Part shown: piece after piece, positions 3,828 through 27,335 of the stretch
Numbering within the stretch: the first letter of the stretch is position 1
Layout: each line of letters begins with the position of its first letter
NCBI GenBank assembly: GCA_002897895.1
Contig: BDSY01000027.1
Location: forward strand, 4,644-68,643
DNA: 64,000 nucleotides
Source of the DNA: a bacterium BMS3Abin06
GTDB taxonomy: Bacteria; Nitrospirota; Thermodesulfovibrionia; UBA6902
Direction of reading: 5' to 3'
The notes under the pieces: model-generated
Told to the model about the DNA's origin: nothing
What the model saw: the letters and a program-made list of their open reading frames with translations, nothing else
Databases searched by the model: none
Position numbers and translations under genes: made by a program

Positions 3828-3980
3828 TTATTCAGGCAGGCACAAAGGCACATAGTGGCAAAGGCACAAAGTGAAAAAAAGAATGAAAAACTTTTCTTGT
3901 ATTCCTGTAACCCTTTGTGCCTATGTGCCTTTGCCACTTTGTGCCTATGTGCCTTTGCCACTTTGTGCCTGAGTAGTTAC
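3828..3980. repeat. MITE-like element of inverted GGCACAAA-type 8-mer arrays flanked by a 12-bp direct repeat
   Basis: Left arm ggcacaaa-ggcacata-gtggcaaa-ggcacaaa (3839-3872). Right arm is the complement, with a 24-bp unit repeated exactly (3913-3936, 3937-3960), ending cctgagtagttac. gaaatttaaaaa at both 3816-3827 and 3981-3992. Confidence 0.8.
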
Positions 3981-3995
3981 GAAATTTAAAAACTT

Positions 3996-4943
3996 ATGGA
4001 GACGGGAATGTCGGAAACCCTGAAACAGATAAAACCGAAGCAGCACCACAATTACGTTGCATTCTTTCTGACCCTGGCATGCAATCTGCGCTGTCCCTAT
4101 TGCATCAATCTGCATGATGGTGGATTGCGATATAAAAAGGCAAAAAGAAGGCAGATGAAGGCAGATGACTGGATAAAGGCGGCAAACAGGCTGGTTCTGA
4201 GGGATGATCTGCCCCTTTCACTTCAGGGGGGCGAGGCAACCCTTTACAGGGACTTTTACAGGTTTGTTAATGAAGTGAAGGAAGAAATAAAAATGGATTT
4301 GTTGACCAACATGATGTTTGATGTCGATGAATTCATCAAAAATGTTCCGCTGTGGAGATTCACAAGGGAAGCGCCCTATGCAGCCATACGGGCCAGTTAT
4401 CATCCCGGTCAGAACAACATAGATGATCTGATTGAAAAGACCTGCAAACTTCAGGATGCCGGTTTCAGGATCGGGATTTACGGTATCGATCATCCGTCCA
4501 TTACAGATCATATTCTTGAGACAAAGGAAAGATGTCTGAAGCAGGGCATTGATTTCAGGACAAAAGAGTTTCTTGGAGAATGGGAAGACAAACTCTATGG
4601 GACGTTTAAGTATGAAGGCTCTGTGCGTGGAGATGAAATGAAACACCGCGAATGCAGAACTACTGAAATAATCGTGGATCCGGCAGGGTATGTATATAAA
4701 TGCCATTCAGACCTTTACAACGGAAGAAATCCTTTTGCCCATATACTGGATGATGACTTTAACGAGGACGAAATAGAAAAGTTCAGGCCCTGTGATTTTT
4801 ATGGTGACTGCAACCCATGTGATGTAAAGGTCAAGACAAACAGGTTCCAGATATTCGGCCATACGAGCGTGGAGATAAGGAACCTGAAAGACCTGATGGA
4901 AAATAAAAAAGTAAAGGAAATGCATTTAGCTGCAAAGGAATAA
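3996..4943 (+). CDS. Radical SAM protein with Cys-rich C-terminal (SPASM/twitch-like) region; start may be ATG 4008
   Basis: CNLRCPYC, LQGGEATL, C-terminal YKCH...CDFYGDCNPCD. Confidence 0.85.
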   Translation: METGMSETLKQIKPKQHHNYVAFFLTLACNLRCPYCINLHDGGLRYKKAKRRQMKADDWIKAANRLVLRDDLPLSLQGGEATLYRDFYRFVNEVKEEIKMDLLTNMMFDVDEFIKNVPLWRFTREAPYAAIRASYHPGQNNIDDLIEKTCKLQDAGFRIGIYGIDHPSITDHILETKERCLKQGIDFRTKEFLGEWEDKLYGTFKYEGSVRGDEMKHRECRTTEIIVDPAGYVYKCHSDLYNGRNPFAHILDDDFNEDEIEKFRPCDFYGDCNPCDVKVKTNRFQIFGHTSVEIRNLKDLMENKKVKEMHLAAKE

Positions 4944-6016
4944 TGGATAAGTATCTTATAGACAGTCATAAACTGCTCTGGCATCTCGACAGGGTCACAG
5001 AATGGCAGGACAAAAGGGTCATTGCACCTGTTTATATTGAGATCAGCCCGGTCTCATTCTGTAACCACAAATGTATCTTCTGCGGAATCGACTTTGCGAG
5101 AGACAAGGGCTTCAAGCTGGAGAGGGAGGCACTCTGTAAAAGACTTGAAGAAATGGGGAAGGCAGGTGTAAAGAGCGTAATGTTTGCCGGAGAAGGTGAG
5201 CCTTTATTGCATAAAGACCTGCCGGAATTTATCAGGACTGCAAGCAATGCCGGCATCGATGTTTCGGTAACAACAAACGGAACCTTGGGAAATTATGATT
5301 TATGGAAAGAGACACTCCCTCATCTTACCTGGATAAGATTCAGTGTGGATGCCGGAACTGCCGGGGTACATGCCAGGGTCCATAATGTTCCGGAAACTTT
5401 TTTTGAGAGGACAGTTGAGAGCATTGAACAGGCTGTCAAGGTAAAAAAGGTGCAAGGGCTTGATGTCACTGTAGGTGTTCAGTTTTTGATAATCGAGGAA
5501 AACCTGAATGATATTGAAAATGCCCTGAGCCTGTTTTCAGGACTTGGGGTTGATTACATAAGCCTTAAACCGTACTCCCTGCATCCACAGATGATAAAGA
5601 AAAAAGAGACCGTTTACACGGATGAAGTAATAAGACATATAGATGATGTAGTTGATGGGTACAGGAAGAACTCAGGTCTGAACATAATTTTCAGGAAAGA
5701 GGCGCTAAAGAAATATATGACTAAGATAAAAATGTTTAAACACTGCTCTGCTCTTCCATTCTGGGGATACATATCTTCAAAAGGCGATTTCTACACATGC
5801 AGTGTATTCATCGGCGATGAGAGATTTAAAACCGGGAACATTCATGAAAACAATATAGATCAGATTTTTTTCGGACAAAAAAGAAAGCAGTCAATACGAT
5901 ACGGAGAGGACGGACTGGTTATTAAAGAAGAGTGCAGACTGAACTGCAGAATGGCGCGGATAAACGAGTTCCTCGAAATTATTGAAAATAAGCCGGAGCA
6001 TGCAAACTTTATTTAG
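4943..6016 (+). CDS. Radical SAM/SPASM-type protein
   Basis: CNHKCIFC, FAGEGEPLL, WIRFSVDA, C-terminal C..LPF...GDFYTC...CRLNC. Confidence 0.9.
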   Translation: MDKYLIDSHKLLWHLDRVTEWQDKRVIAPVYIEISPVSFCNHKCIFCGIDFARDKGFKLEREALCKRLEEMGKAGVKSVMFAGEGEPLLHKDLPEFIRTASNAGIDVSVTTNGTLGNYDLWKETLPHLTWIRFSVDAGTAGVHARVHNVPETFFERTVESIEQAVKVKKVQGLDVTVGVQFLIIEENLNDIENALSLFSGLGVDYISLKPYSLHPQMIKKKETVYTDEVIRHIDDVVDGYRKNSGLNIIFRKEALKKYMTKIKMFKHCSALPFWGYISSKGDFYTCSVFIGDERFKTGNIHENNIDQIFFGQKRKQSIRYGEDGLVIKEECRLNCRMARINEFLEIIENKPEHANFI

Positions 6017-6024
6017 GAGGCCGT

Positions 6025-6990
6025 ATGGCTACAAAAGTACTCATAATTAAACTCGGTTATTCAGAGACACTGGACCAGGAGATAGGAAGGATTCCGAGCC
6101 TCGGGGATGTCCTTAGAACGACCCCGATCCTCTGGGGATTTAAAGAAAAGTATCCTGACAGTCATATAACATGGCTTGTTTCACGTGAAGCGGAACCACT
6201 GCTTACAGGCAACAAGTTCATTGACAGGCTAATGATATGGGATGAATTTGTTCCTTATCAACTGATGAGAGAAAAGTTTGATGTAATGGTAAACCTTGAA
6301 AAGATTCCGGGAGTATGTGCGCTGTCCGATATGATTGATGCATGGGTTAAATATGGATTCCGTTTTGAAAGTGTTAGCGGAACATACCATGCCTATGAGA
6401 AAGGTCTGAACTTCATTGAGTATATAAAAGATAAGCAGAACAGGAAAAAGAGCAAGGACCACTGGCAGCAGGTATTGATAGAAATGGTCGGTGTTAAGTG
6501 GAGGGGACAGGGTTATATCCTGGGATATGATCCCAGGTCTACAGAGAAATACGACATTGGATTTAACTACAATGTCGGAAAGAAATTTCAGACCAAGGCC
6601 ATGTCGATCGGGAAATGGAAAGCACTTGAAAGCAGTCTCGAAGAGCAGGGGTACAATGTATCATGGCAGGAAGGGTTAAAAGATCTTAATGATTATATTG
6701 AATGGATTAACTCCTGCAGACTTTTGATAACACAGGACAGTCTTGGGGTCCATATAGCCCTTGCCCTTAAAAAGAGGATGATAGGATTGTTCGGCCCCAC
6801 GGATGCACAGGAGATATACTTCCATAATTTCGGCAAGTCAATATATTCAAGGCAGGAGTGTCACCTTATGCATTGCTATAGTCCCACATGTTTGACTGGA
6901 TTGAACTGTATGGAATATCTGAATACGGATGAGATACTGAAAGCAGTCGATGAAATGCTCGGAGCAAAGAAGGTAAGTTTGGCAAATTAA
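6025..6990 (+). CDS. Glycosyltransferase family 9 (heptosyltransferase-like)
   Basis: SLGDVLRTTP, ITWLVS, ITQDSLGVHIALALKK..IGLFGPT. Confidence 0.85.
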   Translation: MATKVLIIKLGYSETLDQEIGRIPSLGDVLRTTPILWGFKEKYPDSHITWLVSREAEPLLTGNKFIDRLMIWDEFVPYQLMREKFDVMVNLEKIPGVCALSDMIDAWVKYGFRFESVSGTYHAYEKGLNFIEYIKDKQNRKKSKDHWQQVLIEMVGVKWRGQGYILGYDPRSTEKYDIGFNYNVGKKFQTKAMSIGKWKALESSLEEQGYNVSWQEGLKDLNDYIEWINSCRLLITQDSLGVHIALALKKRMIGLFGPTDAQEIYFHNFGKSIYSRQECHLMHCYSPTCLTGLNCMEYLNTDEILKAVDEMLGAKKVSLAN

Positions 6991-7148
6991 AAGGAGATTA
7001 CGAAAACATTTTAAACAAAACGTCATCCGATTGACATCTCCATCTCTAAAAAACTTTAAAACTAAGTGGTTAGCTTTGGCATGTATATTGCTTTTATGCC
7101 TTGCATGAGAAAAATATCTGTTCTGAAGTGCAAAGGTGAGTCAGCGTC

Positions 7149-7823
7149 ATGAGTTCAAATGTAAAAAGCGCTGTAAAGAATATTTTTAAATACCGGCATA
7201 TTATTTTCGATTTTGACGGAGTGCTGGCTGATACGAATCCGATACGGATTGAAGGATTCGCTAAACTCTTTAAAGAGTATCCCCCTGAGCAGGTGGATGA
7301 GATAATTGCGTTTGCCAACGCCAACGGCGGGCTTTCACGTTTCAAGAAAATCCGCTATTTCTTTAATGAGATCAGGAAGGAATCTTTGTCCAACAAAGAG
7401 CTCTCTGGCTGGGCTGAAAAATATTCCGATATCGTCAAACAGGATGTAATAAACGCGGAGGCAGTTGAAGGGGCTGTTGAATTCCTGACGGGATTTAACG
7501 AGTGTCACAACTTTGCTCTTATTTCCGGATCAGAAGAGCGGGAGCTTCGCGATGTATGCCGGCAGAGGAAGATCGACCGGTATTTTGTAATGATACTCGG
7601 ATCGCCTTCAACAAAGGAAGAGAACATTCATGAATTATTTAAACGTATGCCATGGCAAAAAGAAGAGAGTGTATTTGTCGGTGATTCGGTCAATGATTAC
7701 ACGGCAGCAAAGGCAGTAGGACTCGGTTTTATCGGCCGGAATTCAGGAATGACAGACTGGTCGGCTTACGGGGATGTGTATAGTTTTGATGATTTTAATG
7801 AATTGATAAGAAGAAAAGAATAA
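7149..7823 (+). CDS. HAD-family hydrolase/phosphatase
   Basis: FDFDGVLADT motif I, FVGDSVND motif IV. Confidence 0.9.
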   Translation: MSSNVKSAVKNIFKYRHIIFDFDGVLADTNPIRIEGFAKLFKEYPPEQVDEIIAFANANGGLSRFKKIRYFFNEIRKESLSNKELSGWAEKYSDIVKQDVINAEAVEGAVEFLTGFNECHNFALISGSEERELRDVCRQRKIDRYFVMILGSPSTKEENIHELFKRMPWQKEESVFVGDSVNDYTAAKAVGLGFIGRNSGMTDWSAYGDVYSFDDFNELIRRKE

Positions 7824-7840
7824 TTAAAAAGGAGCTTGGT

Positions 7841-8356
7841 GTGAGATCTGTAATAATAACTGCCCAGAATTTTCAGGATGAGGAATTAACGTATCCGTAT
7901 TACCGGCTTAAGGAAGAAGGGATTATAGTGGATGTGGCTACGCCGGACAAGATGGAGTGTTTCGGTAAATATGGTGTACCGGCACGGCCTACTGTTGATA
8001 CGAAGGACTTGAAGGCGGAAGATTATGACCTTGTGGTCCTGCCTGGTGGTTTTGAGGCGCCGGACCGTCTGAGGTTGCGCAAAGAGGTTCTTAAGTTTAT
8101 TAAGGACATGTATGAAGGCGGAAAGGTCGTTGCCGCGATCTGTCACGGGCCGTGGCTATGTGTTTCGGCCGGGATTTTAAAGGGCAAAAAGGCGACAGCT
8201 TTTCAGTCCATAGCTGATGATGTCCGAAATGCCGGGGCTGAATATCTTGACCGGGATGTTGTTGTGGATGGAAACCTTGTGACCTCGCCCCATTACAGGA
8301 ACAATGGGGATTTTATGAAGGCCACACTTAATTTGCTCAGAGTAAAAACAGAGTAA
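7841..8356 (+). CDS. DJ-1/PfpI family protein (type 1 glutamine amidotransferase-like)
   Basis: FQDEE, LPGG..APDRLR, AICHGPW. Confidence 0.9.
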   Translation: MRSVIITAQNFQDEELTYPYYRLKEEGIIVDVATPDKMECFGKYGVPARPTVDTKDLKAEDYDLVVLPGGFEAPDRLRLRKEVLKFIKDMYEGGKVVAAICHGPWLCVSAGILKGKKATAFQSIADDVRNAGAEYLDRDVVVDGNLVTSPHYRNNGDFMKATLNLLRVKTE

Positions 8357-8362: not shown

Positions 8363-10927
8363 ATGATATATTCAATTTTAGAACAGAAAAACATGGATGT
8401 TACATCAGAAGATGCGGGACCGTCGTCAGCCGAGGGTACTGATTATAACAATGTTATTGTCAAGAAGCCATGGGGATATGAGTACCTGGCTTTTGAGAAT
8501 GAACACGTAGCCATATGGATCCTTCAGCTTGTCCGTAAAAGAAAGACATCAATGCATTGCCACCCCAGAAAAAAGACTTCATTAATCCTCCTGCAGGGGC
8601 AGGCAGTATTTCATCATCTGGACGGCAATGTTTCTTTAGGGGACATGGATGGAGTTGTTATCAAAAATGGAGTTTTTCACTCGACAGAAGCTTATAATCC
8701 TCTGCCCATTACTCCACAATCCGAAAACGGAATATGGGTCATGGAGATTGAATCACCTCCTTATAAATCCGATCTTGTACGCATGCAGGATGCGTATGGA
8801 CGGGCAGGGACTGCTTATGAAGGATCGAGCCATATGGTGCAGGAACCCGAAAGTTACCTGCAGCTGCGGGTGCCGGATTCTTCAGAAGATCTAAAACAGA
8901 AGTTTTTTGACTGTATCTTTACTGTTCATAAAGGCGTCTTTGATAAAGAACTGCCGGCTGATGATGCTCTGATATCAGTGATTGCGCGCGGCGGGGAGAA
9001 TGGAAGTAAGAATCCGGCTTTTTCGGTAGGCGGGTTATCTGAATTCAGGGAATTCAGGAAGAGCGTGGAAAATGTGGACCTCGATGGATATGTTTTTTTG
9101 ATTATTGAAAAAGAGAAAAAGATCATGAGGACTGCTGACTATGTTTTTAACCGAATTGCCGAGTTAGGTGTGAAAGAAGTATTTGCAGTCTCGGGCGGCG
9201 GGGCCATGCATCTTGTGGATGCCGCAGGAAAAAACGAAGACATTAACTATGTCGCGGTCTACCATGAACAGGCAGCTGCCATGGCCGCGGAAGGATATGC
9301 ACGCATAACCGGTAAACCGGGAGTCACGCTCGTTACTTCAGGCCCTGGTGGTACGAATACCATTACCGGTCTCTGCGGGGCATGGATTGATTCAATACCG
9401 ACGATCTTTATTTCAGGACAGGTGACGACCAATACACTGCTGGAAGGGACCGGCCTCCGGCAGTTCGGCATTCAGGAATCAGACATTGTCAGTCTGGTTA
9501 AACCGGTCACAAAATACGCGGTGACAGTAAAAGATCCGGAGATGATCCGGTACCATATTGAAGAAGCGATCTATCATGCGACCAGTGGACGCCCCGGTCC
9601 TGTATGGCTGGACATCCCGCTTGATATTCAGAGCAGACTTATTAATCCCGATGAACTCAGACAGTTCAATCCCCATAGTAAATCTATCCGGGTAGTTTCG
9701 GATGATCTTAAGGGGAAGGTGTCTAAGTGTATAGATTTAATAAAGAAAGCTGAAAGGCCAGTTGTAATCAGTGGTTATGGGATAAGGCTTTCGCATGGAG
9801 AAGAGGAATTTATCCGGTTAGTTGAAATGATAGGGGCGCCTGTTATTTCTTCATGGACGAGCAGCGATTTAATCCCGTCCGATCATGATCTCTATATCGG
9901 GCGCAGCGGGATCATGGGAGACAGGGCCGGTAACTTTACTGTCCAGAATGCTGACCTGCTGCTGGTCATTGGATCAAGGATGTCGATCCCCCAGGTTGGT
10001 TACAACTTCAAGGTATTTGCACGGGAGGCCAAAAAGATAGTTGTAGACATTGACAGGGCCGAGCTTGAAAAGGAGTCGCTCCGGACTGACCTCCCGATCC
10101 AGAGTGACGCAAAGGAATTCATTGAGGAATTGATAAGACAGTTGGAAGAATCAGGCGCAGAGGCCGGATCTCGGAGCTGGCTTGATCAATGCAGAAAGTG
10201 GAAAGAGAAATATCCGGTTGTCCTGCCTGAATATGAAGGCAATGAAGATGCAGTGAACTCATTTTATTTCGTGGATCTGCTTTCGAAGAAGCTCGATAAG
10301 GATGCGGTCATTGTTACGGACATGGGGACAAGTTTTACCTGTACCATGCAGACATTCAAAATCAAAGCGGAGCAGAGGCTCTTTACTTCAAGCGGCCACG
10401 CATCCATGGGTTTCGGACTGCCAGGGGCAATAGGGGCATGCTTCGCGCACGGGAAGAAGACTATATGCATTAGCGGTGACGGAGGTCTCCAGATGAACAT
10501 CCAGGAATTTCAGACACTGGTCCAGTATAAACTGCCGGTCATCCTGTTTGTCTTGAATAATCAGGGGTATCTCACAATTAAATTAATGCAGCAAAATCAT
10601 TTTGGCAGATATGTTGGATCTGATCCGTCCAGCGGAGTCGGAACCCCGGATATTGTAAAGATTGCTCAGGCTTATGGAATTAAAGCGGATCGCATTGCAG
10701 ACCATAAAGAATTAAATCAGAAGATTGATTCCATCCTTGCGGAAGATGGCCCGTTTGTATGTGAGGTGATGATGCCGCCGGAACAGCAGTTGATTCCGAG
10801 GGTTTCTTCCCTGAAAAAACCTGACGGAACTATTATTTCAAAACCACTGGAAGATTTATACCCATTTCTGGACAGAGAAGAATTTCTGGAAAATATGATT
10901 GTGAAACCGGTGGAACCGCTAAAGTGA
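8363..10927 (+). CDS. Fusion of N-terminal cupin domain and ThDP-dependent acetolactate-synthase-like enzyme
   Basis: KPWGYEY...SMHCHP...FHST cupin. HEQAAAMAAEGY, TSGPGGTN, GRPGPVWLDIP, GDGGLQMN...NNQGY ThDP motif. Confidence 0.85.
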   Translation: MIYSILEQKNMDVTSEDAGPSSAEGTDYNNVIVKKPWGYEYLAFENEHVAIWILQLVRKRKTSMHCHPRKKTSLILLQGQAVFHHLDGNVSLGDMDGVVIKNGVFHSTEAYNPLPITPQSENGIWVMEIESPPYKSDLVRMQDAYGRAGTAYEGSSHMVQEPESYLQLRVPDSSEDLKQKFFDCIFTVHKGVFDKELPADDALISVIARGGENGSKNPAFSVGGLSEFREFRKSVENVDLDGYVFLIIEKEKKIMRTADYVFNRIAELGVKEVFAVSGGGAMHLVDAAGKNEDINYVAVYHEQAAAMAAEGYARITGKPGVTLVTSGPGGTNTITGLCGAWIDSIPTIFISGQVTTNTLLEGTGLRQFGIQESDIVSLVKPVTKYAVTVKDPEMIRYHIEEAIYHATSGRPGPVWLDIPLDIQSRLINPDELRQFNPHSKSIRVVSDDLKGKVSKCIDLIKKAERPVVISGYGIRLSHGEEEFIRLVEMIGAPVISSWTSSDLIPSDHDLYIGRSGIMGDRAGNFTVQNADLLLVIGSRMSIPQVGYNFKVFAREAKKIVVDIDRAELEKESLRTDLPIQSDAKEFIEELIRQLEESGAEAGSRSWLDQCRKWKEKYPVVLPEYEGNEDAVNSFYFVDLLSKKLDKDAVIVTDMGTSFTCTMQTFKIKAEQRLFTSSGHASMGFGLPGAIGACFAHGKKTICISGDGGLQMNIQEFQTLVQYKLPVILFVLNNQGYLTIKLMQQNHFGRYVGSDPSSGVGTPDIVKIAQAYGIKADRIADHKELNQKIDSILAEDGPFVCEVMMPPEQQLIPRVSSLKKPDGTIISKPLEDLYPFLDREEFLENMIVKPVEPLK

Positions 10928-12489
10928 CCATGACAACTAATGTAGAAAAATCTGTTTATGATGCCGTGATAGTAATGAATACTGAGCATGATCAAACAGC
11001 GATTGCAAAAGTCGACATTGAAGCAGGGGAAGCGATTACAGATAATGGTATTGTCATTGAAATCAGGAATTCTGTAAAAAAGGGGGAGAGGTTTGCGATC
11101 AGGGAGATCCCCCAGGGTGAATATGTCCGTCAGAATGGATATGCGTTTGGCCGGTCAAAGGGAATAGAAAAAGGTGAGATTATCTCTTCTCTCAATATTA
11201 TAAATATGATTCCTGATACTGACCTGGAAGAATACAGTGAACCGGCAGATACAGAATATAATGAAGAATTGTGCAGAAAGACATTTTCAGGTTATCCGCG
11301 AAAAGACGGTACGGCGGGGACAAGAAATTATTATTTAGTAATTCCTACATCAATGTGTGCCAGTGAAGTTGCTCTGCAGGTTGCATCATCTTTTGCAGAT
11401 AACGAGAATCTGCTGGAAAAATATTCGTCACTGGACGGCATTATTGCAATACCTCATACAGAGGGGTGCGGATGCGATTCGGAGATTTCGATCAGCAGGC
11501 TCATGAGGGTGCTGGCAGGGTATGCGCGCCACCCCAATGTCGGCGGATGTCTTATTATCGACCTTGGATGTGAACAGACTAATTACAGGGTGATGCATTC
11601 GTATATGGAGCAGGAGATCCCAAAAAATCTGAAGCCGATCGACTGGATTACCATTGAAGAGAACGGGGGTGTGGAGGCGTCGATAAAAAAAGCGCGGGAA
11701 ATAATCATCGGACAATTAAGAGAGCTTAATGAGAACAGAAGACAGGACTGTCCGATTGAAAAACTTGTCGTTGGCACGGAATGCGGGGCTTCGGATTCCT
11801 TCTCGGGTCTTACGGCCAACCCCCTGATAGGGAATGTAGCAGACAGAATCGTTTTGGGGAAAGGGATGGTCATCCTCTCCGAGATACCTGAACTGGTCGG
11901 GACTGAGCAGATGCTGCATTCACGGTTCAGCAATCTGAACGTGTCTAAGAAATTCCGGAACTTGATTAAATGGTATGAAGATCTTGCAGGTAAACTGGGT
12001 ATGACATTAGAATCCAATCTTGTTCCCAAAAATGTTGAAGGCGGATTATTTAATACGTATATAAAAAGTCTGGGCGCTGTGTTAAAAGGCGGGACAACAG
12101 TAATTGAAGATGTTGTTGATTATGGAGAACCTCTTGTGAAAAGCGGACTGAATATCATGCAGGGTCCGGGAGGTGACCTTGAATCCGTGACAGGCATGGT
12201 AGCGTCCGGGGCAAACATGGTCCTGTTTTCAACAGGGCAGGGCACCCCGACAGGAAATGCGATATGTCCGGTAATCAAGGTTGCATCCAACAGCGATGTT
12301 TTTTTGAAACTGAGTAATGATCTGGATTTTAACGGTGGTCGGCTGTTTGATGAGTATGAGACTATTGAATCATTAGGAGATGAACTGCTGAATATGGTCA
12401 TTGAAGTTGCGTCCGGAAAGCAGACGGCAGCCGAAAAATTGAAACAGCGGCAGTTTCAGATATGGACAGCGGGGAAGTTGCCATTGTGA
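10924..12489 (+). CDS. UxaA/GarD-family sugar-acid dehydratase with SAF domain
   Basis: GTRNY, HTEGCG, HPNVGG, GTECGASD, NPLIG, TGQGTPTG. Confidence 0.9.
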   Translation: MTMTTNVEKSVYDAVIVMNTEHDQTAIAKVDIEAGEAITDNGIVIEIRNSVKKGERFAIREIPQGEYVRQNGYAFGRSKGIEKGEIISSLNIINMIPDTDLEEYSEPADTEYNEELCRKTFSGYPRKDGTAGTRNYYLVIPTSMCASEVALQVASSFADNENLLEKYSSLDGIIAIPHTEGCGCDSEISISRLMRVLAGYARHPNVGGCLIIDLGCEQTNYRVMHSYMEQEIPKNLKPIDWITIEENGGVEASIKKAREIIIGQLRELNENRRQDCPIEKLVVGTECGASDSFSGLTANPLIGNVADRIVLGKGMVILSEIPELVGTEQMLHSRFSNLNVSKKFRNLIKWYEDLAGKLGMTLESNLVPKNVEGGLFNTYIKSLGAVLKGGTTVIEDVVDYGEPLVKSGLNIMQGPGGDLESVTGMVASGANMVLFSTGQGTPTGNAICPVIKVASNSDVFLKLSNDLDFNGGRLFDEYETIESLGDELLNMVIEVASGKQTAAEKLKQRQFQIWTAGKLPL

Positions 12490-12493
12490 AAAC

Positions 12494-12560
12494 AATTAAG
12501 AATTATGAATTACGAATGAAGGAAAAATAATTACGAATCAAAGATTCGTAATTCGTAATT
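12494..12560. repeat. AATTACG-type heptamer array with 11-bp hairpin
   Basis: aattaag-aattatg-aattacg-aat; aattacgaatc-aaa-gattcgtaatt-cgtaatt. Confidence 0.75.
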
Positions 12561-12579
12561 GATTTTAAAGGAGGTTGTT

Positions 12580-14022: not shown

Positions 14023-14031
14023 GAGACGCGT

Positions 14032-16694: not shown

Positions 16695-16700
16695 GATAAT

Positions 16701-19489: not shown

Positions 19490-19566
19490 AAGAATCCGGA
19501 CGTGGAGTGAAAACTGTTAAACCGGCAGATTACGTAAATATTTATTTTTAGTGAAAGGGACACCGA

Positions 19567-20637
19567 ATGGGTATTTTATACACGAAGATGAAGATATTTC
19601 ATTATAAAGACAAAATAGAGTCGCTGAATATGAATACGGATAAAATAATGCCGCCTGTCCATATAAGGATAAAACCGACAAATGTATGCCCACATAACTG
19701 CCGTTATTGCGCTTACCGGGCGGACAATCTGCAACTTGGCAAAGATATGCGTCTGGCAGATTATATACCGAAAAAAAGAATGATGGAAATCATAGATGAT
19801 ATTGTGGAAATGAGAGTCAAAGCCGTAACTTTCAGTGGGGGAGGCGACCCTTTTTACTACCCTTATTTACTCGATACGGTCAGGAAACTCTCAAAGACAC
19901 CGGTGAAATTTGCATCTCTAACAAATGGAGCAGGGCTTAATGGTGAGGTTGCAGAGATTTTCGCACATAAAGGTACCTGGCTCAGGATTTCCATGGATGG
20001 ATGGGATAATGAGAGTTACTCTTTTTACAGGAAGGTGCCGGAAGGGGAGTTTACAAAAGTAATGAATAATATGGAGGATTTCAAGAAACTCGGAGGCGGA
20101 TGCTTCCTCGGAGTCAGCCTGATCGTTGACAGGAAGAATTCAGATCATGTTTTCGATTTTATCCGCAGGCTTAAAGAGATCGGAGTGGACAGTGTAAAGG
20201 TTTCTCCCTGCATTGTAAGCAATGACGGAGAAGCTAATAACGAATATCACCGGCCTGTATTTGAAAAAGTAAAAGAACAGATGAAGAGCGCAATGGAAGA
20301 TATGGATGATAAGGACTTCGAGATCTTTGACGCTTATCACGAACTGGATAATAAATTCATTAAAGAATATACCTGGTGTCCCTATCTGCAGATTTTGCCT
20401 GTAATAGGGGCTGATCTTAACATATATCCCTGCCAGGACAAGGCATATAATCTGGAAGAGGGACTTGTCGGTTCGATTAAAGATCAAAGTTTCAGGGATT
20501 TCTGGTTTAATGACAAGAACAAGTTTTACAAAATAAACCCTTCAATTGTCTGTAATCACCACTGTGTGGCTAATACAAAAAACAAAATAGTACTGGAGTA
20601 TCTGGATACGGATAAAGAACATATGGGGTTTGTTTGA
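19567..20637 (+). CDS. Radical SAM/SPASM-type protein, paralogue of 4943-6016
   Basis: CPHNCRYC, FSGGGDP, WLRISMDG, C..LQILPVIGADLNIYPC...CNHHC. Confidence 0.9.
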   Translation: MGILYTKMKIFHYKDKIESLNMNTDKIMPPVHIRIKPTNVCPHNCRYCAYRADNLQLGKDMRLADYIPKKRMMEIIDDIVEMRVKAVTFSGGGDPFYYPYLLDTVRKLSKTPVKFASLTNGAGLNGEVAEIFAHKGTWLRISMDGWDNESYSFYRKVPEGEFTKVMNNMEDFKKLGGGCFLGVSLIVDRKNSDHVFDFIRRLKEIGVDSVKVSPCIVSNDGEANNEYHRPVFEKVKEQMKSAMEDMDDKDFEIFDAYHELDNKFIKEYTWCPYLQILPVIGADLNIYPCQDKAYNLEEGLVGSIKDQSFRDFWFNDKNKFYKINPSIVCNHHCVANTKNKIVLEYLDTDKEHMGFV

Positions 20638-20732
20638 GTGAGAGGCTCATTTTAAAGAAAGGATAGAGTTTAATCATGCTTAAATTAAAAGAACGACCAC
20701 GTGAAAAATATCCTTACTATTCGAGTAAATCA

Positions 20733-21749
20733 ATGAACTATAAAATTCTGGTTACCCTCGGGCCGAGCTCACTTAGTGAGCAGATCATTAATCTTATTGA
20801 AAAACAGGATATTTATCTCTTCAGGATTAATTTATCCCATACTCCACTGGATCATGTTGAGGAAAGAATAAATGAAATTAAAAAATATACTGATATCCCC
20901 ATTTGCTTAGATTCGGAAGGGGCCCAAATTCGTAATCGTATAATGGGGGAGGGCGCAGTTTTTTTACGCGAAGACAGCATGATAAAGGTTCATTTTGATG
21001 ATGTGCTGGGTGATTCTTTCAATATTTCGTTTTCACCGGATTATATTGCCACTCAGCTTCAAATTGGTGATGAAATTAGCGTTGATTTTGATGCAGCTAC
21101 AATCAGGATCACTGAGAAGCACAAAGATTATTGTTTAGCGAAAGTGATTGTTCCTGGAAACGTCGGCAGCAATAAAGCTGCGGATTTGCTGAATAGAAAG
21201 CTTGAACTCGATCCGATTACTGAAAAAGACAAGAAGGCAATAGCAATAGGAGAAAAATATGGGATAAAAAATTTCGCACTCTCTTTTGCCGGTAATAAAG
21301 ATAATGTAAAACAGTTTCGTGAATTAGCAGGGAAAGATTCAATGATTATCTCTAAGATAGAGAGTCGTTCCGGTCTACGCAACCTTGACGGAATACTCGA
21401 AGAAAGCAATGAAATTCTGATAGATCGCGGAGATCTTTCCCGTCAGGTACCTTTGGAAAAAATCCCTTTCTTCCAAAGAAAAATTATCTCTTTTGCCAGG
21501 AATAAAATGACCCCGGTTTATGTTGCAACTAATTTGCTTGAATCAATGATTATATCGGCTCAACCCACCAGAGCTGAGGTTAATGATGTGATCAGTACTT
21601 TGATGGATGGAGCGAATGGCCTCGTTCTGGCTGCCGAAACTGCGGTTGGTAAATTTCCGGTCAAATCCGTTGAGATGATAAGGCGGCTTATGGATCAACT
21701 GGAACGCTGGACGCCAAATACCAGTATTCAGGAGTTAATGGATTATTGA
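20733..21749 (+). CDS. Pyruvate kinase-like protein lacking the C-terminal regulatory domain (start ATG 20733 preferred over 20676)
   Basis: KILVTLGPS, RINLSH, SKIE, RGDL, LLESM, PTRAEV, ETAVGKFP; about 338 aa. Confidence 0.85.
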   Translation: MNYKILVTLGPSSLSEQIINLIEKQDIYLFRINLSHTPLDHVEERINEIKKYTDIPICLDSEGAQIRNRIMGEGAVFLREDSMIKVHFDDVLGDSFNISFSPDYIATQLQIGDEISVDFDAATIRITEKHKDYCLAKVIVPGNVGSNKAADLLNRKLELDPITEKDKKAIAIGEKYGIKNFALSFAGNKDNVKQFRELAGKDSMIISKIESRSGLRNLDGILEESNEILIDRGDLSRQVPLEKIPFFQRKIISFARNKMTPVYVATNLLESMIISAQPTRAEVNDVISTLMDGANGLVLAAETAVGKFPVKSVEMIRRLMDQLERWTPNTSIQELMDY

Positions 21750-21816
21750 ACTTGATTGTGTTCAATTGTGATAGCTGTTAAGGCTTATGTTTTTTTAAAA
21801 AAAGGATAGATATTTT

Positions 21817-22350
21817 ATGAACCCTATAATTTGGATAATGGGACCAACTTCAAGCGGCAAAACTACACTTGCGACAGGGCTGTTAAAAAAAATTCGCGGA
21901 GCTCAGATTAAATCTATTACATTTGATGGTGATGAGGTACGTGATTTTTTTGGAAAAGATATCGGGTTTGAACCCGCAGATCGTTTAAGGGTTGTTAGTA
22001 CTATTGTTCATCTATCCAATAAAGCCAGAGAGGCCGGGTTAGTGGTGATAGTTTCAGCCTTAACCGCCAATCAGGATGCTCGAGACTATATTTTGGAGCA
22101 ATTGAATGAGTACCTGATTGTTTATGTCGATTGTAGTATTAAGGCTTGTGCAAAGAGAGACCCAAAAGGTCTTTATGCTTTAGCTGAAAATGGCGCGATT
22201 GATTCACTTATTGGTTTTAATAACGACTATCTGCCCCCGGTTAACCCTGACATAGTCATTCAGACGGAATCTGAAACCAAGGAAGAGAGTATAAATTGTC
22301 TAATTGAATATTTAAAAAAATGCCATCCAGTTATTGAAAGGAACATATAA
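21817..22350 (+). CDS. cysC: Adenylyl-sulfate (APS) kinase-like protein
   Basis: P-loop GPTSSGKTT, DGDEVR, RDPKGLY, Y.PPVNPD. Confidence 0.75.
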   Translation: MNPIIWIMGPTSSGKTTLATGLLKKIRGAQIKSITFDGDEVRDFFGKDIGFEPADRLRVVSTIVHLSNKAREAGLVVIVSALTANQDARDYILEQLNEYLIVYVDCSIKACAKRDPKGLYALAENGAIDSLIGFNNDYLPPVNPDIVIQTESETKEESINCLIEYLKKCHPVIERNI

Positions 22351-22355
22351 ATCAT

Positions 22356-22456
22356 ATGAAATAAAAAGTTGTACGCGACCACTTTCCGTAGAAGATATAA
22401 CGGAAAAATATTGTAGTTGGCTAAATAATGAAGAGAAAAATCGAAAAAAACAATAA
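22356..22456 (+). pseudogene. Remnant of a GNAT/RimJ-like acetyltransferase N-terminus
   Basis: Frame at 22361 reads ...RPLSVEDITEKYCSWLNNEE then stops; upstream ATG 22356 is out of frame. Confidence 0.45.
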
Positions 22457-22516
22457 AGATTGCCCGGATGGAAACGAGTATAAATTCTCACCGGCTCTTT
22501 TACGATTGGAGGCGCT

Positions 22517-23854
22517 ATGATCTTGCAAGAAATTGTTCAGTTAGGGGAACAGTTTTTTTTAAATAAGCCACTGAACAACGCGGTTGAAAATCTCAAAAAA
22601 TATTTGAGCAGAGAAAAAGATAAGATACAAGAGCTGGCCGTATTGGGCTTCCAGAATGAACATATCCCGTTTTTAAATGCCCTGTCTGAGTCATTCCCCG
22701 AGTTGACTATCCGTTCTATCAATATTCCTCAAGAAAATTATCTCTGGAGAAGGTATACAGGACCGGAACAAACACAGCTTGATTACCCGTTTTCGCACAT
22801 AATACTCATTGCTCACCCGGATGGATTCCGGAAATTAATTAGATTTGTGAGATTCATGGTGGGGTATGAGACAAAAATAATATTACCCTTTTCCAAGACG
22901 GATAAAATAGAGGTGGATAAAGAGTATACTCTTGATTTGGAACCGTTGGTCAGAACAAAAATTGGTCTTTTTGGGCCGAATCATGGATCCGGATTACTCT
23001 CAAGGCAGTTGATGCCATTATTTGAGGGGCTTGATATCATGTTTGACCACACTGCGAAAGAGGCCCACCATGATGTCCGTTTTACAAGAAGTATCTCGCC
23101 TGAAAATTTATGTAAAGGTGTTGTTGGTACACGAGGGCAACTCATTCCTGCCGATAAGGTGGATGATTATTACATATCCCTTTTAAAGCTCTACCCAACC
23201 TATGACCGTTGGTTTTTTATCCATTGCTTTGTTAGCCTGGAAAAACTTGTTGAACAGACCCCCCCGGATATTGATTATATTTATTTAATCAGAGACCCAA
23301 GGGCAGTGGTAAATACTACGTATCATAGAGTAATGCACGACAACATGGAGCTGGATTTTGGCCATCTGAAAAAAATGTCAAAAGAAGAATTACTTTCATT
23401 TATTATTGACGGGTGGGAGTACCTGAGAAAGGACTACTTTCTAAGATATCCTTCTGTTCCGGATATGGTAAGGAATTCTCTATTTGCATATGAGTCGAAA
23501 TTACCTAATCTCAATTATATTAAATACGAGGATGCAATGGTTTCACCTCAAGAAACTTACAGGAATTTATTAAAAAACATTCGATTCGGAGAAAACGGGT
23601 TTACCGCTGTTTCTGATGTTGCTCTCCAAAACGCAATTGACGCAGGTTCTTTTGAAAAAATTTCAGGAGGCAAGCGAAAAAAAGGAGAGGATAACGTAGG
23701 TATTATAAAAGATGGCTATGGCACAATTACTCTCAGAAAAGGCGTCTTGCGAGATTGGGAAAATATTTTCACCACCCCGATTAAAAATAAAATAAAAGAT
23801 TTGATAGGCGATGAACTCATCAGGCTTGGATATGAGAAAGATCATGACTGGTAA
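22517..23854 (+). CDS. PAPS-dependent sulfotransferase-domain protein
   Basis: IRDPRAVV (3'-PB), IKYED, RKGVLRDWENIFT; 5'-PSB motif divergent (GPNHGSGLL). Confidence 0.75.
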   Translation: MILQEIVQLGEQFFLNKPLNNAVENLKKYLSREKDKIQELAVLGFQNEHIPFLNALSESFPELTIRSINIPQENYLWRRYTGPEQTQLDYPFSHIILIAHPDGFRKLIRFVRFMVGYETKIILPFSKTDKIEVDKEYTLDLEPLVRTKIGLFGPNHGSGLLSRQLMPLFEGLDIMFDHTAKEAHHDVRFTRSISPENLCKGVVGTRGQLIPADKVDDYYISLLKLYPTYDRWFFIHCFVSLEKLVEQTPPDIDYIYLIRDPRAVVNTTYHRVMHDNMELDFGHLKKMSKEELLSFIIDGWEYLRKDYFLRYPSVPDMVRNSLFAYESKLPNLNYIKYEDAMVSPQETYRNLLKNIRFGENGFTAVSDVALQNAIDAGSFEKISGGKRKKGEDNVGIIKDGYGTITLRKGVLRDWENIFTTPIKNKIKDLIGDELIRLGYEKDHDW

Positions 23855-23902
23855 TTTTTGGGTTGGTTAAAAGTTCTTTCAATAGTAATCAAATAAAACG
23901 CT

Positions 23903-25990
23903 ATGCAGGAAATAATTGAAATAGAGGAGGCGTGTGCCTCCGGTAATCATGAAACAGTAGTTTCAATGCTGGAGTCTATAGATTCTTTTGATATAAAAAA
24001 AGAGGCGTTTCTGAAAATTATCGGATATTATGAAAACAAATCTCTATTCGCAACAGGCTATGTGCTTTCCTTTGTGAAGTGGCTGATATTTAATCGTGAT
24101 TATAAAACAGCAATGGAATATATAAATAAATGCAGGAAAAAGAGTGTTGCGGAAGAAAGGTTATCACAACTTATTTTTGAAAGTCTTATAAAGCCGGATG
24201 AAACCTTTTACAAAGAGAAATTTAATAAAAACCTTCGACTGCTCCGGGAAAACAACATATTATTTTCAGAACAGGAGTTTGATTTTGATCAAATAAAAAA
24301 ACAGTTATTGATAATTGCAGATTACCAGCCTGCCATTCCAGAGAGCCTGCTCGAAAAAGTTAATGGCAAGAGACCGTTACTGATAGATATTATTAACGTT
24401 GAATTTATAAATAATCTCCTCAATGTTAATTATGTTTATCTTGTTTATAATGATGTGAAATTGTTTTACTATATGCTTCTGTTTGAAGACTTTTCCGGAA
24501 TAGATCAATACATCAAGCAAAAAAGGCTCATATTTTTTCTTGGTAAAGAGAAAAAAATCCTGGAAGATTTTTTCTTGAACTCATCCACTATAACGCCTGC
24601 TTTCTGTCTTGGCGAATCAATAAATGAGAAATATACTGAAATCATTAATGAGATAGTGAATGTCAGAGAAGAGAAACACCAATCCACTTTAAGGGCGCTT
24701 AATGATATTTATAAAGATCATGATTACAGATATTACAGGGACCTTTTTGCGAAAGGACCGTCAGACATAAAAATTATGCTGATAACGTCAGATAAAACCG
24801 AAATCAATCAGTTTATTGTAAGGAACTGGTATGAAGCCTTTTTGCAGATGGGATATCAGGTAAAACTGGTAATAGAAAGTGAACCCTATGAATATGTCTG
24901 CAATCATCTTATTTGCGATTCAATGAATGAATTTAAGCCGGACATTGTATTTTATATAAATTTTACGGTTAATGATATTTTCCATGATGAGGGGGAAGCA
25001 GGCAGAAATATATTATGGATATCAAGATACAGGGACTCTGTAGGCAGTGAGCTGTATCACGCTGAACCGGGTTATAAATATAATAATATGTTTATCTTGC
25101 CTGTAGCATTGGAATGGGAAGAGGAATTGAAAAAAATTGGTGTGCCTGAAAACAGAATATTGAGCACATCCGATGGAATAAACATTAATATATTTACAAA
25201 AAAGGAGAAAATAAACAAACAGCATGCCTGTGACATTGTAAACGTTAATAATGCAGTCGGAAGTTTGAATTTCAGATTGAATTATTATCTTGAAAACATA
25301 ACAAATGAAAATGTAAAAAAGGTAATTCTTGAACTGGTTGATGAGTTGAAAGAAATAGTTAGTGATGAAACGGTTATTTTTTATCTGCCCAATTCTGATA
25401 ATTTTATAGACAGGTTAAACAAAAGGATAGCACATTATGGAGGTGATTTGACTAAAAGCGGTAAAATATACATGGATAATTTTTTCCTTCATATAATGGA
25501 TTCGTTATGTCGCGCTACGGTTATGGAATGGATTATTGATTCTGGAATTACCAAAAATATCAGACTCTGGGGTAAAGGCTGGTCTAATTGTGAGAAGTTT
25601 AAAAAATACCATATGGGTGTGGCACAACATGGTGAAGAATTGTCAGCTATCTACAGAAGTAGTAAAATCTCCATATCAGACAGTTCATGGGCGCTTCATG
25701 AAAGGAATTTTGAAATTATGGCGAGCGGAGGATTTCCCTTAATAAGATATGTACAAACTCCGGAAGTCGAAGAAATGAACAAAATCACAAATCATTTTAA
25801 AGAAAATGAAGAGGTTGTGCTGTTTTATAGTAAGGATGATTTATTGAACAAGATTCAGTACTACCTTGATAACCCCGAAGAACGGGAAAGAATAGCTGAA
25901 AATGGCAGAAATGTTGTAATGCATGATTTCACTAATATTGCAATTGCAAGGAAGACAATGGAGTTTATTGGAAGTTACTATAGAGAGTGA
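23903..25990 (+). CDS. CgeB/YkvP-like glycosyltransferase (C-terminal GT-B domain)
   Basis: RLWGKGW, RNFEIMASGGF, IQYYLDNPEERERIAENG. Confidence 0.75.
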   Translation: MQEIIEIEEACASGNHETVVSMLESIDSFDIKKEAFLKIIGYYENKSLFATGYVLSFVKWLIFNRDYKTAMEYINKCRKKSVAEERLSQLIFESLIKPDETFYKEKFNKNLRLLRENNILFSEQEFDFDQIKKQLLIIADYQPAIPESLLEKVNGKRPLLIDIINVEFINNLLNVNYVYLVYNDVKLFYYMLLFEDFSGIDQYIKQKRLIFFLGKEKKILEDFFLNSSTITPAFCLGESINEKYTEIINEIVNVREEKHQSTLRALNDIYKDHDYRYYRDLFAKGPSDIKIMLITSDKTEINQFIVRNWYEAFLQMGYQVKLVIESEPYEYVCNHLICDSMNEFKPDIVFYINFTVNDIFHDEGEAGRNILWISRYRDSVGSELYHAEPGYKYNNMFILPVALEWEEELKKIGVPENRILSTSDGININIFTKKEKINKQHACDIVNVNNAVGSLNFRLNYYLENITNENVKKVILELVDELKEIVSDETVIFYLPNSDNFIDRLNKRIAHYGGDLTKSGKIYMDNFFLHIMDSLCRATVMEWIIDSGITKNIRLWGKGWSNCEKFKKYHMGVAQHGEELSAIYRSSKISISDSSWALHERNFEIMASGGFPLIRYVQTPEVEEMNKITNHFKENEEVVLFYSKDDLLNKIQYYLDNPEERERIAENGRNVVMHDFTNIAIARKTMEFIGSYYRE

Positions 25991-26008
25991 TCTGAAAAAT
26001 GTCTTCCT

Positions 26009-26280
26009 TTATCCCCAGATCTCTTTGAGAGGGATGTTAAAATCCGGGAACAGGGAAGGTTTGAATTCATCCTCCCCTGCAATGCCTGACACAAGGCGGC
26101 AAGTTTTTTTCTGTCAAGCTCAAAGCTCTCGATGGTCTGGTTCTCCGGGTCTATAAGCCAGAGGTGTTTAATGCCATACTTTGCATAGATCTTCATCTTA
26201 ACAATACGGTATTTTTGTATGGTCCAGTCTGACAGGATTTCAATGATGAGGTTAGGGGTTCCCTTGCCATTAAATAGCTT
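26009..26280 (-). pseudogene. 5'-truncated, frameshifted Uma2-family endonuclease
   Basis: Minus strand GTPNLIIEILS...KMKIYAKYGIKHLWLIDPENQTIESFELD; after a shift in the A7 run it continues RLVSGIAGEDEFKPSLFPDFNIPLKEIWG-stop. Confidence 0.8.
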
Positions 26281-26335
26281 GAAATTGGGCTACCATTGGG
26301 TTATCATGAAGATGTAGCAGAATTCCGGAGGGCTT

Positions 26336-26878
26336 ATGAAAAATATAAAAATTGACTACATTCCAAGGTATACTTACAATGACTATCTAAACTGGGAGGG
26401 TAGATGGGAATTAATTGAGGGACTTCCCTATGCTATGACTCCGCTGCCAATTATTGAACATCAGGAGGTCAGTAAAAATATTCTTTTACAACTTTCAGAA
26501 CGATTAAAAGACTGCATAAAATGTAAGGCGTTACTCCCGGTAGACTGGAAGATAGATAACGACACGGTTTTACAGCCGGATAATTCAGTAGTCTGTGAAG
26601 AGGTTGGAGGCAAGTATCTAACGAAACCTCCCTCAATGATATTTGAGATAGTCTCACCTGCAACAGCTTTTAAAGATAAGAATATCAAACACAAGATATA
26701 TGAATCTGAAGGGGTTAAATATTATATCATTGTAGATATTGTTGCCAAAGTAGCCGAAGTTTTCCATCTCGATGATGGCAGTTATAAAAAACTCAAAGAT
26801 GCTCAGGATGATGTGATAACTTTTAATTTAGGTGAGTGCGCGATAAATTTTGATTTCGGGACGATATGGGACATTTAA
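26336..26878 (+). CDS. Uma2-family (DUF820) endonuclease
   Basis: WELIEG..YAMTP.P..EHQ, QPD, PSMIFEIVSP, KIYESEGVKYY. Confidence 0.9.
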   Translation: MKNIKIDYIPRYTYNDYLNWEGRWELIEGLPYAMTPLPIIEHQEVSKNILLQLSERLKDCIKCKALLPVDWKIDNDTVLQPDNSVVCEEVGGKYLTKPPSMIFEIVSPATAFKDKNIKHKIYESEGVKYYIIVDIVAKVAEVFHLDDGSYKKLKDAQDDVITFNLGECAINFDFGTIWDI

Positions 26879-27183
26879 TTGTTGGTGGATCCGTAAAAAG
26901 TCTGAAATTGCTTTATATACAGACCCGCAATGTCTGACACAAGGTGATGTGTAATGTCAATTCATTGACAAACCTCTGCATATCACAGGAAAAATATTCC
27001 CGGAAAGAAAAAATATCTGAATTTTTTCTATATCCCCCGTAAAAATACCCGCATGAAAATTTACGATTTATTGTCTGTAGCATTCTTTTTTCTTAATAAT
27101 AACAGGCGGTTATGGATGTGTGAATAATATTCCGTAATTTCTCCATGAATTCAAATCAGTACATGTTAATAAGTTAAAGATTC

Positions 27184-27199
27184 TGGCACTTTATTTGCA
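27184..27199 (+). promoter_or_regulatory. Sigma54 (-24/-12) promoter upstream of the neuC operon
   Basis: TGGCAC-TTTAT-TTGCA, consensus spacing. Confidence 0.75.
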
Positions 27200-27335
27200 G
27201 TCTTTAAAATGTGCATATATATAAGTATTTAACCGGCAGGAATAACACTTTCAAATTAATAGATTTTAATTTTAAAAAGAGTTAAGAAATTATATAACTC
27301 AACTAATAGTTTCCCGGAAGATAATCAGGAAAAGG

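Follow-up and report, generated by a model that had tools for sequence, protein, structure and literature searches.

The glycans on flagellin influence motility, recognition by phages and the charge of the cell surface, and the islands that encode them are classic hot spots of diversity. In Campylobacter jejuni, cj1321-cj1326 and ptmG form a strain-variable tailoring set that alters the derivative of legionaminic acid (Leg), according to PMC13130089, which cites Howard 2009. Islands of Aeromonas, Clostridium and Geobacillus are described, in sources such as PMC7874193 and PMC5109656, as combining a nonulosonate core with strain-variable genes and yielding heterogeneous flagellin glycans. Here we analyse a 64,000-nucleotide stretch (the window) of contig BDSY01000027.1 from the Nitrospirota bacterium BMS3Abin06, a 2.98-Mb metagenome-assembled genome (MAG; 92% complete, 43.1% GC), in which the Leg genes neuB and neuC are separated by 17 biosynthetic open reading frames (ORFs; 3996-25990), labelled c01-c17. 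The whole locus, about 45 kb in length, is a flagellin glycosylation island. We consider it probable that the segment at 3.8-27.3 kb is the variable tailoring region of this island, sigma54-controlled and Maf-dependent, and that it is a long-resident mosaic, not one recent cassette. This reading draws on gene families, synteny, presence or absence, composition and promoter motifs; the substrates used, the compound made and its attachment to flagellin are predicted from these.

Of the known systems, the locus most closely resembles that of C. jejuni NCTC 11168 (cj1293-cj1342), sharing with it a GDP-linked Leg pathway with a PtmE-type CBS-nucleotidyltransferase and a Maf gene beside flagellin. 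In both, moreover, the leg genes are interrupted by variable tailoring genes, which in C. jejuni (cj1321-cj1326) lie between legB/legC (cj1319/20) and the legI/legG block. The C. jejuni break falls between legC and legI, and legI and legG stay adjacent, unlike the arrangement in the window. The C. jejuni set also consists of six genes without radical SAM, thiamine diphosphate (ThDP)-dependent or sulfation enzymes, and phase-variable homopolymeric tracts of the C. jejuni kind are not seen in the window. The gene order in C. jejuni NCTC 11168 is neuB2-neuC2-ptmE.

Compared with the Aeromonas, Clostridium and Geobacillus islands, the radical-SAM-rich enzyme content of the window is of a different kind. 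Our literature searches found no report of radical SAM enzymes in such islands: the term 'radical SAM' is absent from the papers retrieved on glycosylation islands and nonulosonic acids, and terms co-occurred only in a few unrelated papers. To our knowledge, the enzymes of this region (radical SAM, HemN-like, and ThDP-dependent with DJ-1 and a dehydratase) have no characterised counterpart in protein glycosylation. YerE and YerF are known from the ThDP-dependent synthesis of a branched-chain sugar, yersiniose. The acetolactate synthase (ALS)-like ThDP enzyme c06, next to the reductase c09 in a sugar locus, is reminiscent of this pair, and the alternative form of the module discussed below has a transketolase, another C2-transferring ThDP enzyme. 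What sets c06 apart is its 250-aa N-terminal extension and its pairing with DJ-1 and a UxaA-type dehydratase, for which no counterpart is known in yersiniose loci. Likenesses to radical SAM enzymes acting on nucleoside-linked sugars are seen for c02 (BlsE, 2e-11), the c01 model (viperin/SPASM enzymes) and c11 (KedN5, of the GenK/KedN5-type B12 C-methyltransferases), although these lie below family cut-offs or at TM ~0.5 and indicate fold class, not function. The locus is a new member of the known hypervariable flagellin glycosylation islands, and its interest lies in its enzyme content. It shows how diversity is assembled outside the well-studied pathogens, with c01-c03 as a fixed left anchor, c17 as a fixed right one and swappable enzyme blocks between them. 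Some genomes carry a split transketolase in this slot, whereas the window has an ALS-like ThDP block, with a sulfation set added.

Comparative analysis of the neuB-neuC junction

Among the 60 relatives surveyed, neuB was found in 25 and neuC in 13. The two genes are adjacent, 17-26 bp apart or overlapping, in four genomes of the same family (G022, G017, G026 and G033), and both c01 and c13 are absent from the whole of these genomes. In G022 the spacer is 26 bp and the remaining island is orthologous, from legB through Maf-flagellin. The empty neuB-neuC junction that a sequence-only reading of the window had proposed to look for thus exists, and the intervening genes are accessory, as that reading held. 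Over 61 genomes, c01 is present in nine and c13 in two. In G005, a member of another genus, the corresponding site holds an insert of 21.3 kb, comprising a neuB::c01 fusion, c02 (72% identity), c03 (78%), c12 (35%) and c13 (68%); the middle of this insert holds a split transketolase, other B12 radical SAM genes and a GT2 glycosyltransferase, and two c17 paralogues (39-44% identity) stand just upstream of neuC. Between the window's genome (G000) and G005, c01-c03 are 72-78% identical, compared to only 62-64% for neuB and neuC. The order in JAMCVL01 is neuB-c01-c02-c03-HAD-DJ1-ThDP-B12-UxaA-rSAM-c17-[PIN toxin-antitoxin pair]-neuC, with c17 at 52% identity, and PJEL01 carries c01-c03, c13 and a colinear c04-c10 at 62-87% identity. 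Relatives therefore do not share one uniform set of intervening genes: G005, JAMCVL01 and PJEL01 have overlapping but different sets at the same site. In six Nitrospirota-type MAGs (G000, G005, G023, G032, JAMCVL01 and PJEL01), c01 adjoins neuB or neuD. The split neuB-neuC arrangement is recurrent, and old in part of the family; its frame is conserved while its interior varies.

G001, of the same genus as the window's genome, retains a deleted remnant (DRDE01000151.1) with truncated copies of legB and legC and with unrelated genes after it. Either the island has decayed here or the assembly of the MAG is at fault. The remnant includes a 500-aa chimeric frame (L008:5813-7315) in which the N-terminus of neuD is joined to residues 8-249 of neuB and residues 100-311 of c01.

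The repeat element after neuB had been taken for the left edge of a cassette. Its 12-bp direct repeat is real, the identical 12-mer gaaatttaaaaa standing at 3816-3827 and 3981-3992 on either side of a palindrome, with the final neuB codons and stop inside the first copy. The palindrome, made of GGCACAAA-type arrays (fold -70.5 kcal/mol, z = -8.8; inverted arms of 41 nt), has genome-wide BLAST matches on 46 contigs, with at least 25 loci on other contigs (87-118 nt aligned, 83-97% identity). Its inverted terminal repeats, its target-site duplication, the large number of dispersed copies and its lack of coding capacity identify it as a miniature inverted-repeat transposable element (MITE), or REP-like element. 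Deleting the MITE and one repeat copy in silico leaves a 6-nt gap from the neuB stop to the c01 ATG. The MITE is missing from this spacer in the nearest relatives, G023 and G032, where it measures 12-20 nt, and neuB and c01 share one 659-aa open frame in G005 (L003:7675-9654, JADHUV010000002.1). Because of the dispersed copies, the short spacers and the fusion, we conclude that the MITE is a late, secondary insertion in a tight operon junction and does not mark a cassette border. A 43%-identical NeuB match lies inside an 820-aa open frame in G036, possibly a further fusion.

The right edge had been described as Uma2 debris, and a minus-strand fragment is indeed there, but an intact 180-aa Uma2 ORF accompanies it; the genome has four divergent Uma2 copies. 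JAMCVL01 carries its PIN toxin-antitoxin pair in the same c17-neuC spacer, in place of Uma2; this spacer is a collector of selfish genes. The intact Uma2 gene, together with part of the fragment, lies between the two copies of a 21-nt direct repeat (90% identical; 26076-26096 and 26924-26944), which may be the footprint of the Uma2 copy's arrival.

Composition gives no cassette signature. GC and codon-use comparison with the genome places c01-c13 within +/-1.3 standard deviations of genome GC, with ordinary codon use, and although GC is low in c14-c17 and Uma2 (z -1.5 to -3.0; c14-c16, z -1.5 to -1.6), it is low in neuC and ptmE too. Since the low-GC stretch continues into neuC and ptmE there is no boundary at neuC, and neither proposed border shows a compositional step. 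A Pfam scan detected no integrase, recombinase or transposase among the region's ORFs of at least 80 aa, nor is the region as a whole enclosed by a long direct repeat, the 12-bp repeat flanking the MITE only. Of the marks of a mobile island, the empty site in relatives is present; a recombinase, terminal repeats and deviating composition are not. The Nitrospirota sequences group together in the c03 tree as a single supported clade (95/99), apart from the Geobacterales-type, Campylobacterota and Planctomycetota groups, which argues against recent cross-phylum import.

Modular composition and regulation

A search with c01 found 24 loci. The order c01-c02-c03-X1-X2-c12-c13, in which X1 and X2 are the two halves (TKN and TKC) of a split transketolase, recurs in Geobacteraceae, Sulfurimonas, Arcobacteraceae, other Campylobacterales, Planctomycetota (Planctomycetales) and Desulfobacteraceae, and the c12-c13 pair follows the split transketolase in at least 10 loci of other phyla. 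In one Campylobacterales MAG the module comes directly after flagellin and Maf. In the window, the split-transketolase slot is occupied by the c04-c11 block (11.8 kb), so that one ThDP-dependent C2-transfer enzyme, the ALS-like c06, stands where another, transketolase, does elsewhere. The DJ1-ThDP-UxaA trio is also found in Omnitrophota, Nitrospinaceae and other metagenome contigs, sometimes with no Leg or flagellar gene nearby. Cultured carriers of the core module are Citrifermentans bremense R1 and Geotalea toluenoxydans, and its presence in these Geobacteraceae therefore makes the chemistry accessible to experiment. A relocated copy of the split transketolase was considered for the window's genome and rejected: the pairs on contigs C58 and C64 reach only 25-45% identity and probably belong to housekeeping or another locus. 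One Nitrospinaceae locus (L039, JALPWY010000007.1) contains members of the c05, c06, c08, c09, c10, c12 and c13 families together with NUDIX and PhyH, and has no glycosyltransferase, Leg or flagellar gene within 10 kb; in that setting the product of the block may not be a flagellin glycan.

The proposal that the neuC half has its own sigma54 promoter is borne out at the level of motif, an exact consensus preceding neuC (Table 1). With the -24 GG/-12 GC spacing, the orientation and rpoN in the genome, this site is a predicted promoter, and the same exact motif precedes neuC in G005. The second exact copy in the genome (C22:19106-19121) lies ~29 nt before a flgF/flgG-like gene that heads a flgG-flgA-flgH-flgI...flgM-flgN-flgK run, and a near-consensus site (GGGCAC-N5-TTGCT) precedes legB, just outside the window. 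Because sigma54-type motifs precede legB, c04 and neuC, the Leg and interior genes are predicted to belong to the flagellar sigma54 regulon and to be co-regulated with flagellar genes. Three minor observations concern these sites. The genome has two full-length rpoN genes (C16:45034-45507 and C10:1417-1890), both in open frames of 493 aa, which may represent paralogues or else a mixture of strains in the MAG. About 500 bp upstream of the exact site on C22 lies a MITE copy (C22:18503-18620) with 97% identity. A sigma28-like site (TAAAG-N16-CCGATAA, 37733-37760) is found ~220 nt upstream of flagellin, the long leader including a GC-rich stretch.

Proposed mechanism and alternative explanations

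We envisage the interior of the locus as four modules. The first, c01-c03 with c12-c13, is a remnant comprising five of the seven genes of a radical-SAM/GT9/split-transketolase/methyltransferase module conserved in Nitrospirota, Geobacteraceae, Campylobacterota, Planctomycetota and Desulfobacteraceae. The second, c04-c11 (HAD, DJ-1, ALS-like ThDP enzyme, UxaA-type dehydratase, HemN-like protein, short-chain dehydrogenase/reductase (SDR) and two B12 radical SAM enzymes), fills the transketolase slot; the third, c14-c16, is a rare low-GC set with an adenosine 5'-phosphosulfate (APS) kinase and a sulfotransferase, and the fourth is the glycosyltransferase c17, the conserved right anchor. To these is added selfish DNA, namely the MITE after neuB and the Uma2 copies before neuC. 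The Leg genes are predicted to make CMP-Leg from a GDP-linked precursor as in C. jejuni, while the interior genes may build or remodel a nucleotide-activated sugar, with radical chemistry by c01, c02 and c13, ThDP-dependent addition or processing of a C2/keto-acid unit by c06 with c07 and c09, methylation by c08, c10, c11 and c12, and sulfation by c14-c16. The GT9-like c03 and c17 might then attach the product, Maf would transfer the glycan onto flagellin, and three sigma54-type promoters (legB, c04 and neuC) would tie expression to flagellar assembly.

Whether the target is Leg or a further sugar can be argued from two sides: the neuB-c01 link favours a module that would act on Leg itself, and occurrence of the module without Leg genes favours one that would make a second sugar. 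The more specific idea is that c01-c03 act directly on the nonulosonate made by NeuB and, with the ThDP enzyme and c12/c13, turn Leg into a radical-tailored ulosonic acid of an undescribed class, with an extended or branched carbon chain, which here would also be C-methylated and sulfated. This is suggested by the position of c01 beside neuB or neuD in six MAGs, by its fusion in one and by its better conservation than the Leg enzymes, but we hold so detailed a scheme to be decidedly improbable. A heptose-based product is a possibility only: the GT9 and HAD proteins and the HldE/GmhA-like genes of an Omnitrophota cluster bring it to mind, although neither GmhA nor HldE is encoded in the window and the HAD protein there does not resemble GmhB.

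The sequence-only reading saw in the region an exchangeable cassette. Its accessory, variable nature holds good, but a single unit with defined edges does not emerge from the data. Insertion of one 23-kb cassette between neuB and neuC, bounded by the repeat and Uma2 debris, would account for the four empty junctions, for selfish DNA at both ends and for the promoter motif of neuC; the 12-bp duplication, however, belongs to a 165-bp MITE with at least 25 copies elsewhere, neuB and c01 lie 6 nt apart without it and are fused in G005, c01-c13 are host-like in composition, no recombinase or repeat flanking the whole region was found, and sub-blocks are distributed differently (c01 in 9/61 genomes, c13 in 2/61, c16 almost unique). 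A single cassette is largely refuted, and we regard it as very improbable. More credible, if still unlikely, is a history in which the long form is ancestral and the adjacent neuB-neuC of G022 and similar genomes arose by deletion, nothing having been inserted. The neuB of split loci is 64-78% identical to that of the window, compared to 70% for the empty-site G022, and the neuB tree mixes both states; the G001 remnant (legB', legC' and the neuD'/neuB'/c01' chimera) shows that deletions happen here, and the coherent Nitrospirota clade in the c03 tree fits as well. Nevertheless, adjacency in the distant G017, G026 and G033 (~52% identity) and in C. jejuni suggests that the adjacent state is older, and the neuB tree gives no resolution either way.

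The interior might also be an independent pathway, to another envelope glycan or a small metabolite, whose product is placed on neither Leg nor flagellin. Consistent with this idea, the c01-c03/transketolase/c12-c13 module occurs in Geobacteraceae and others with GT2 and TPR genes and no nonulosonic acid or flagellin genes within 10 kb, the Nitrospinaceae cluster described above has no glycosyltransferase or flagellar gene nearby, and an Omnitrophota cluster joins the block to HldE- and GmhA-like heptose genes. However, c01 directly follows neuB or neuD in at least five Nitrospirota-type MAGs and is once fused to neuB, the module follows flagellin and Maf in the Campylobacterales MAG, and the co-directional, tightly spaced genes have sigma54-type promoters matching the flagellar regulon, all of which leaves an independent pathway improbable in our view. 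The preferred reading, a mosaic tailoring region within a flagellin glycosylation island, has evidence to contend with too. The core module is found without Leg or flagellar genes within 10 kb both in Geobacteraceae and in a Nitrospinaceae cluster, and because of this the module product may not be specific to flagellin or Leg. The exact sigma54 motif occurs twice in the 2.98-Mb genome versus 2.2 copies expected from composition, which is no enrichment. The neuB tree is a polytomy that does not separate the order of insertion and deletion, and the neuB::c01 fusion is known from one MAG only. In G023 and G032, moreover, the contig carrying neuB-c01 ends within c01 or immediately beyond it, and neuC begins another contig.

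Annotation of the locus

The features of the locus are collected in Table 1. The sequence-only reading had counted about 20 tailoring genes in the gap, which fits the 17 co-directional biosynthetic ORFs plus an intact Uma2 gene and a Uma2 fragment obtained from ORF calls and Pfam. The gap is preceded by legB-legC-neuD-neuB, ending at 3824, and followed by neuC-ptmE-legF-Maf-flagellin from 27336; the coordinates given earlier for neuB and neuC are correct, and family models identify both genes (511 and 499 bits). The interior ORFs overlap or are tightly spaced and run in one direction.

Table 1. Positions of genes, promoter motifs and repeats in the window, with the matches on which each assignment rests
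Feature	Position	Strand	Evidence
legB, NAD-dependent sugar-nucleotide 4,6-dehydratase	35..1033	+	TIGR04180 LegB 511.4 bits, exceeding cut-off of 475
legC-type aminotransferase	972..2144	+	TIGR04181 417.3 bits vs cut-off 420, top-scoring family; DegT Pfam 7.6e-112
neuD/legH-type N-acetyltransferase	2185..2826	+	TIGR03570 203 bits vs 160.8
neuB/legI nonulosonate synthase	2823..3824	+	TIGR03569 (NeuB_NnaB) 511 bits vs 399.7
MITE-like palindromic repeat, 165 bp	3828..3992		12-bp target-site duplication 3816-3827 / 3981-3992
c01, small radical SAM enzyme	3996..4943	+	Pfam Radical_SAM; CNLRCPYC motif and C-terminal Cys cluster; left anchor
c02, radical SAM/SPASM enzyme	4943..6016	+	Pfam; best PDB sequence match BlsE cytosylglucuronate decarboxylase, 2e-11
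c03, GT9-like (heptosyltransferase-family) glycosyltransferase	6025..6990	+	Pfam Glyco_transf_9; PDB 3tov 2.3e-7; 78% identity to G005
sigma54-like site TGGCAT-N5-TTGCT	7077..7092	+	57 nt before c04; consensus match only
c04 HAD phosphatase (7149-7823) and c05 DJ-1/PfpI (7841-8356)	7149..8356	+	Pfam; colinear in PJEL01, JAMCVL01 and one JGI contig
c06, ALS-like ThDP enzyme, 250-aa N-terminal extension	8363..10927	+	Pfam TPP_enzyme N, M and C domains
c07 UxaA/galactarate-type dehydratase, c08 HemN-like radical SAM, c09 SDR	10924..14814	+	profile matches; colinear, 73-80% identity in PJEL01
c10 and c11, two B12-binding radical SAM enzymes	14811..18770	+	profile matches; c11 KedN5-like C-methyltransferase
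c12, class I methyltransferase, with c13, a radical SAM paralogue of c02	18791..20637	+	Pfam; second piece of cross-phylum module
c14 pyruvate-kinase barrel without C domain, c15 APS kinase, c16 divergent sulfotransferase	20676..23854	+	profile matches
c17, 695-aa glycosyltransferase (C-terminal Glyco_trans_1_2)	23903..25990	+	Pfam; right anchor
Truncated Uma2 C-terminal fragment	~26010..26290	-	Pfam 2.1e-11, profile positions 94-153 of 172
Intact Uma2 (DUF820) gene, 180 aa	26336..26878	+	Pfam 1.3e-25
sigma54 promoter consensus TGGCAC-N5-TTGCA	27184..27199	+	exact motif, 136 nt before neuC ATG
neuC/legG hydrolysing 2-epimerase	27336-28592	+	TIGR03568 (NeuC_NnaA) 499 bits, exceeds cut-off
neuC/legG (as in the row above), ptmE-type CBS-nucleotidyltransferase, legF-type CMP-sugar synthetase	27336..30393	+	profile matches
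Gfo/Idh/MocA oxidoreductase and class III aminotransferase	30390..32805	+	profile matches
TPR protein, Maf-type flagellin glycosyltransferase (34772-37588), flagellin (37979-39850)	32853..39850	+	PseD domain 3.6e-28; flagellin 1e-110

The radical SAM complement of the region consists of three non-B12 enzymes (c01, c02 and c13), two B12 enzymes and one HemN-like protein. Across phyla c01 is 64-81% identical, and the nearest folds to its AlphaFold model (pLDDT 77.5) are viperin, SuiB and anSME (SPASM enzymes) at TM ~0.5, which indicates fold class only. PDB sequence searches likewise gave only fold-class matches for c01 and nothing for c17, and Pfam has no match for the N-terminal 256 aa of c06 or the N-terminal 532 aa of c17. 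For c06, full-length relatives at 62-78% identity number more than 120, and in the loci compared the c06-type enzyme is always paired with DJ-1 and the UxaA-type dehydratase. The match of c11 to the KedN5 subfamily (6.9e-74) is under the subfamily cut-off. It is plausible that c14-c16 are a set for 3'-phosphoadenosine 5'-phosphosulfate formation and sulfation; ATP sulfurylase, for APS supply, is encoded elsewhere in the genome. The c16 protein is rare: of 1.84 billion cluster representatives only 12 match it at E<=1e-30, and the nearest of them shares 35% identity.

The flanking genes are predicted to encode a C. jejuni-type GDP-linked Leg pathway, with the caveat that TIGR03569 and TIGR03568 do not separate Neu from Leg specificity. 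The ptmE-type protein has the CBS + NTP_transferase architecture of the step to the GDP-sugar precursor. The CMP-sugar synthetase (CTP_transf_3, 1.5e-27) is under the cut-off of the PseF equivalog model, the models not fixing its sugar specificity, and the PseD-domain score of Maf is under the full-length cut-off. FlaG, FliD and FliS lie directly downstream of flagellin, and with Maf and flagellin they confirm the flagellin setting noted before; housekeeping genes start at valyl-tRNA synthetase, and the genes upstream of legB are unrelated and on the opposite strand.

Further downstream, a B12-binding radical SAM gene with DUF4070 (43925-45220, minus strand) comes right after fliS and a 113-aa ORF, and B12 radical SAM genes are also present after ptmE or legF in G022, G002 and JAMCVL01. 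At 59122-63067, a toxin-antitoxin pair of the MNT/HepT type (nucleotidyltransferase and RNase) stands immediately before the gene for an Eco57I/MmeI-like type IIG restriction-modification enzyme of 1094 aa. An 835-aa ORF at 53982-56489 on the minus strand, which has no Pfam match, lies in the highest-GC part of the window (~51%).

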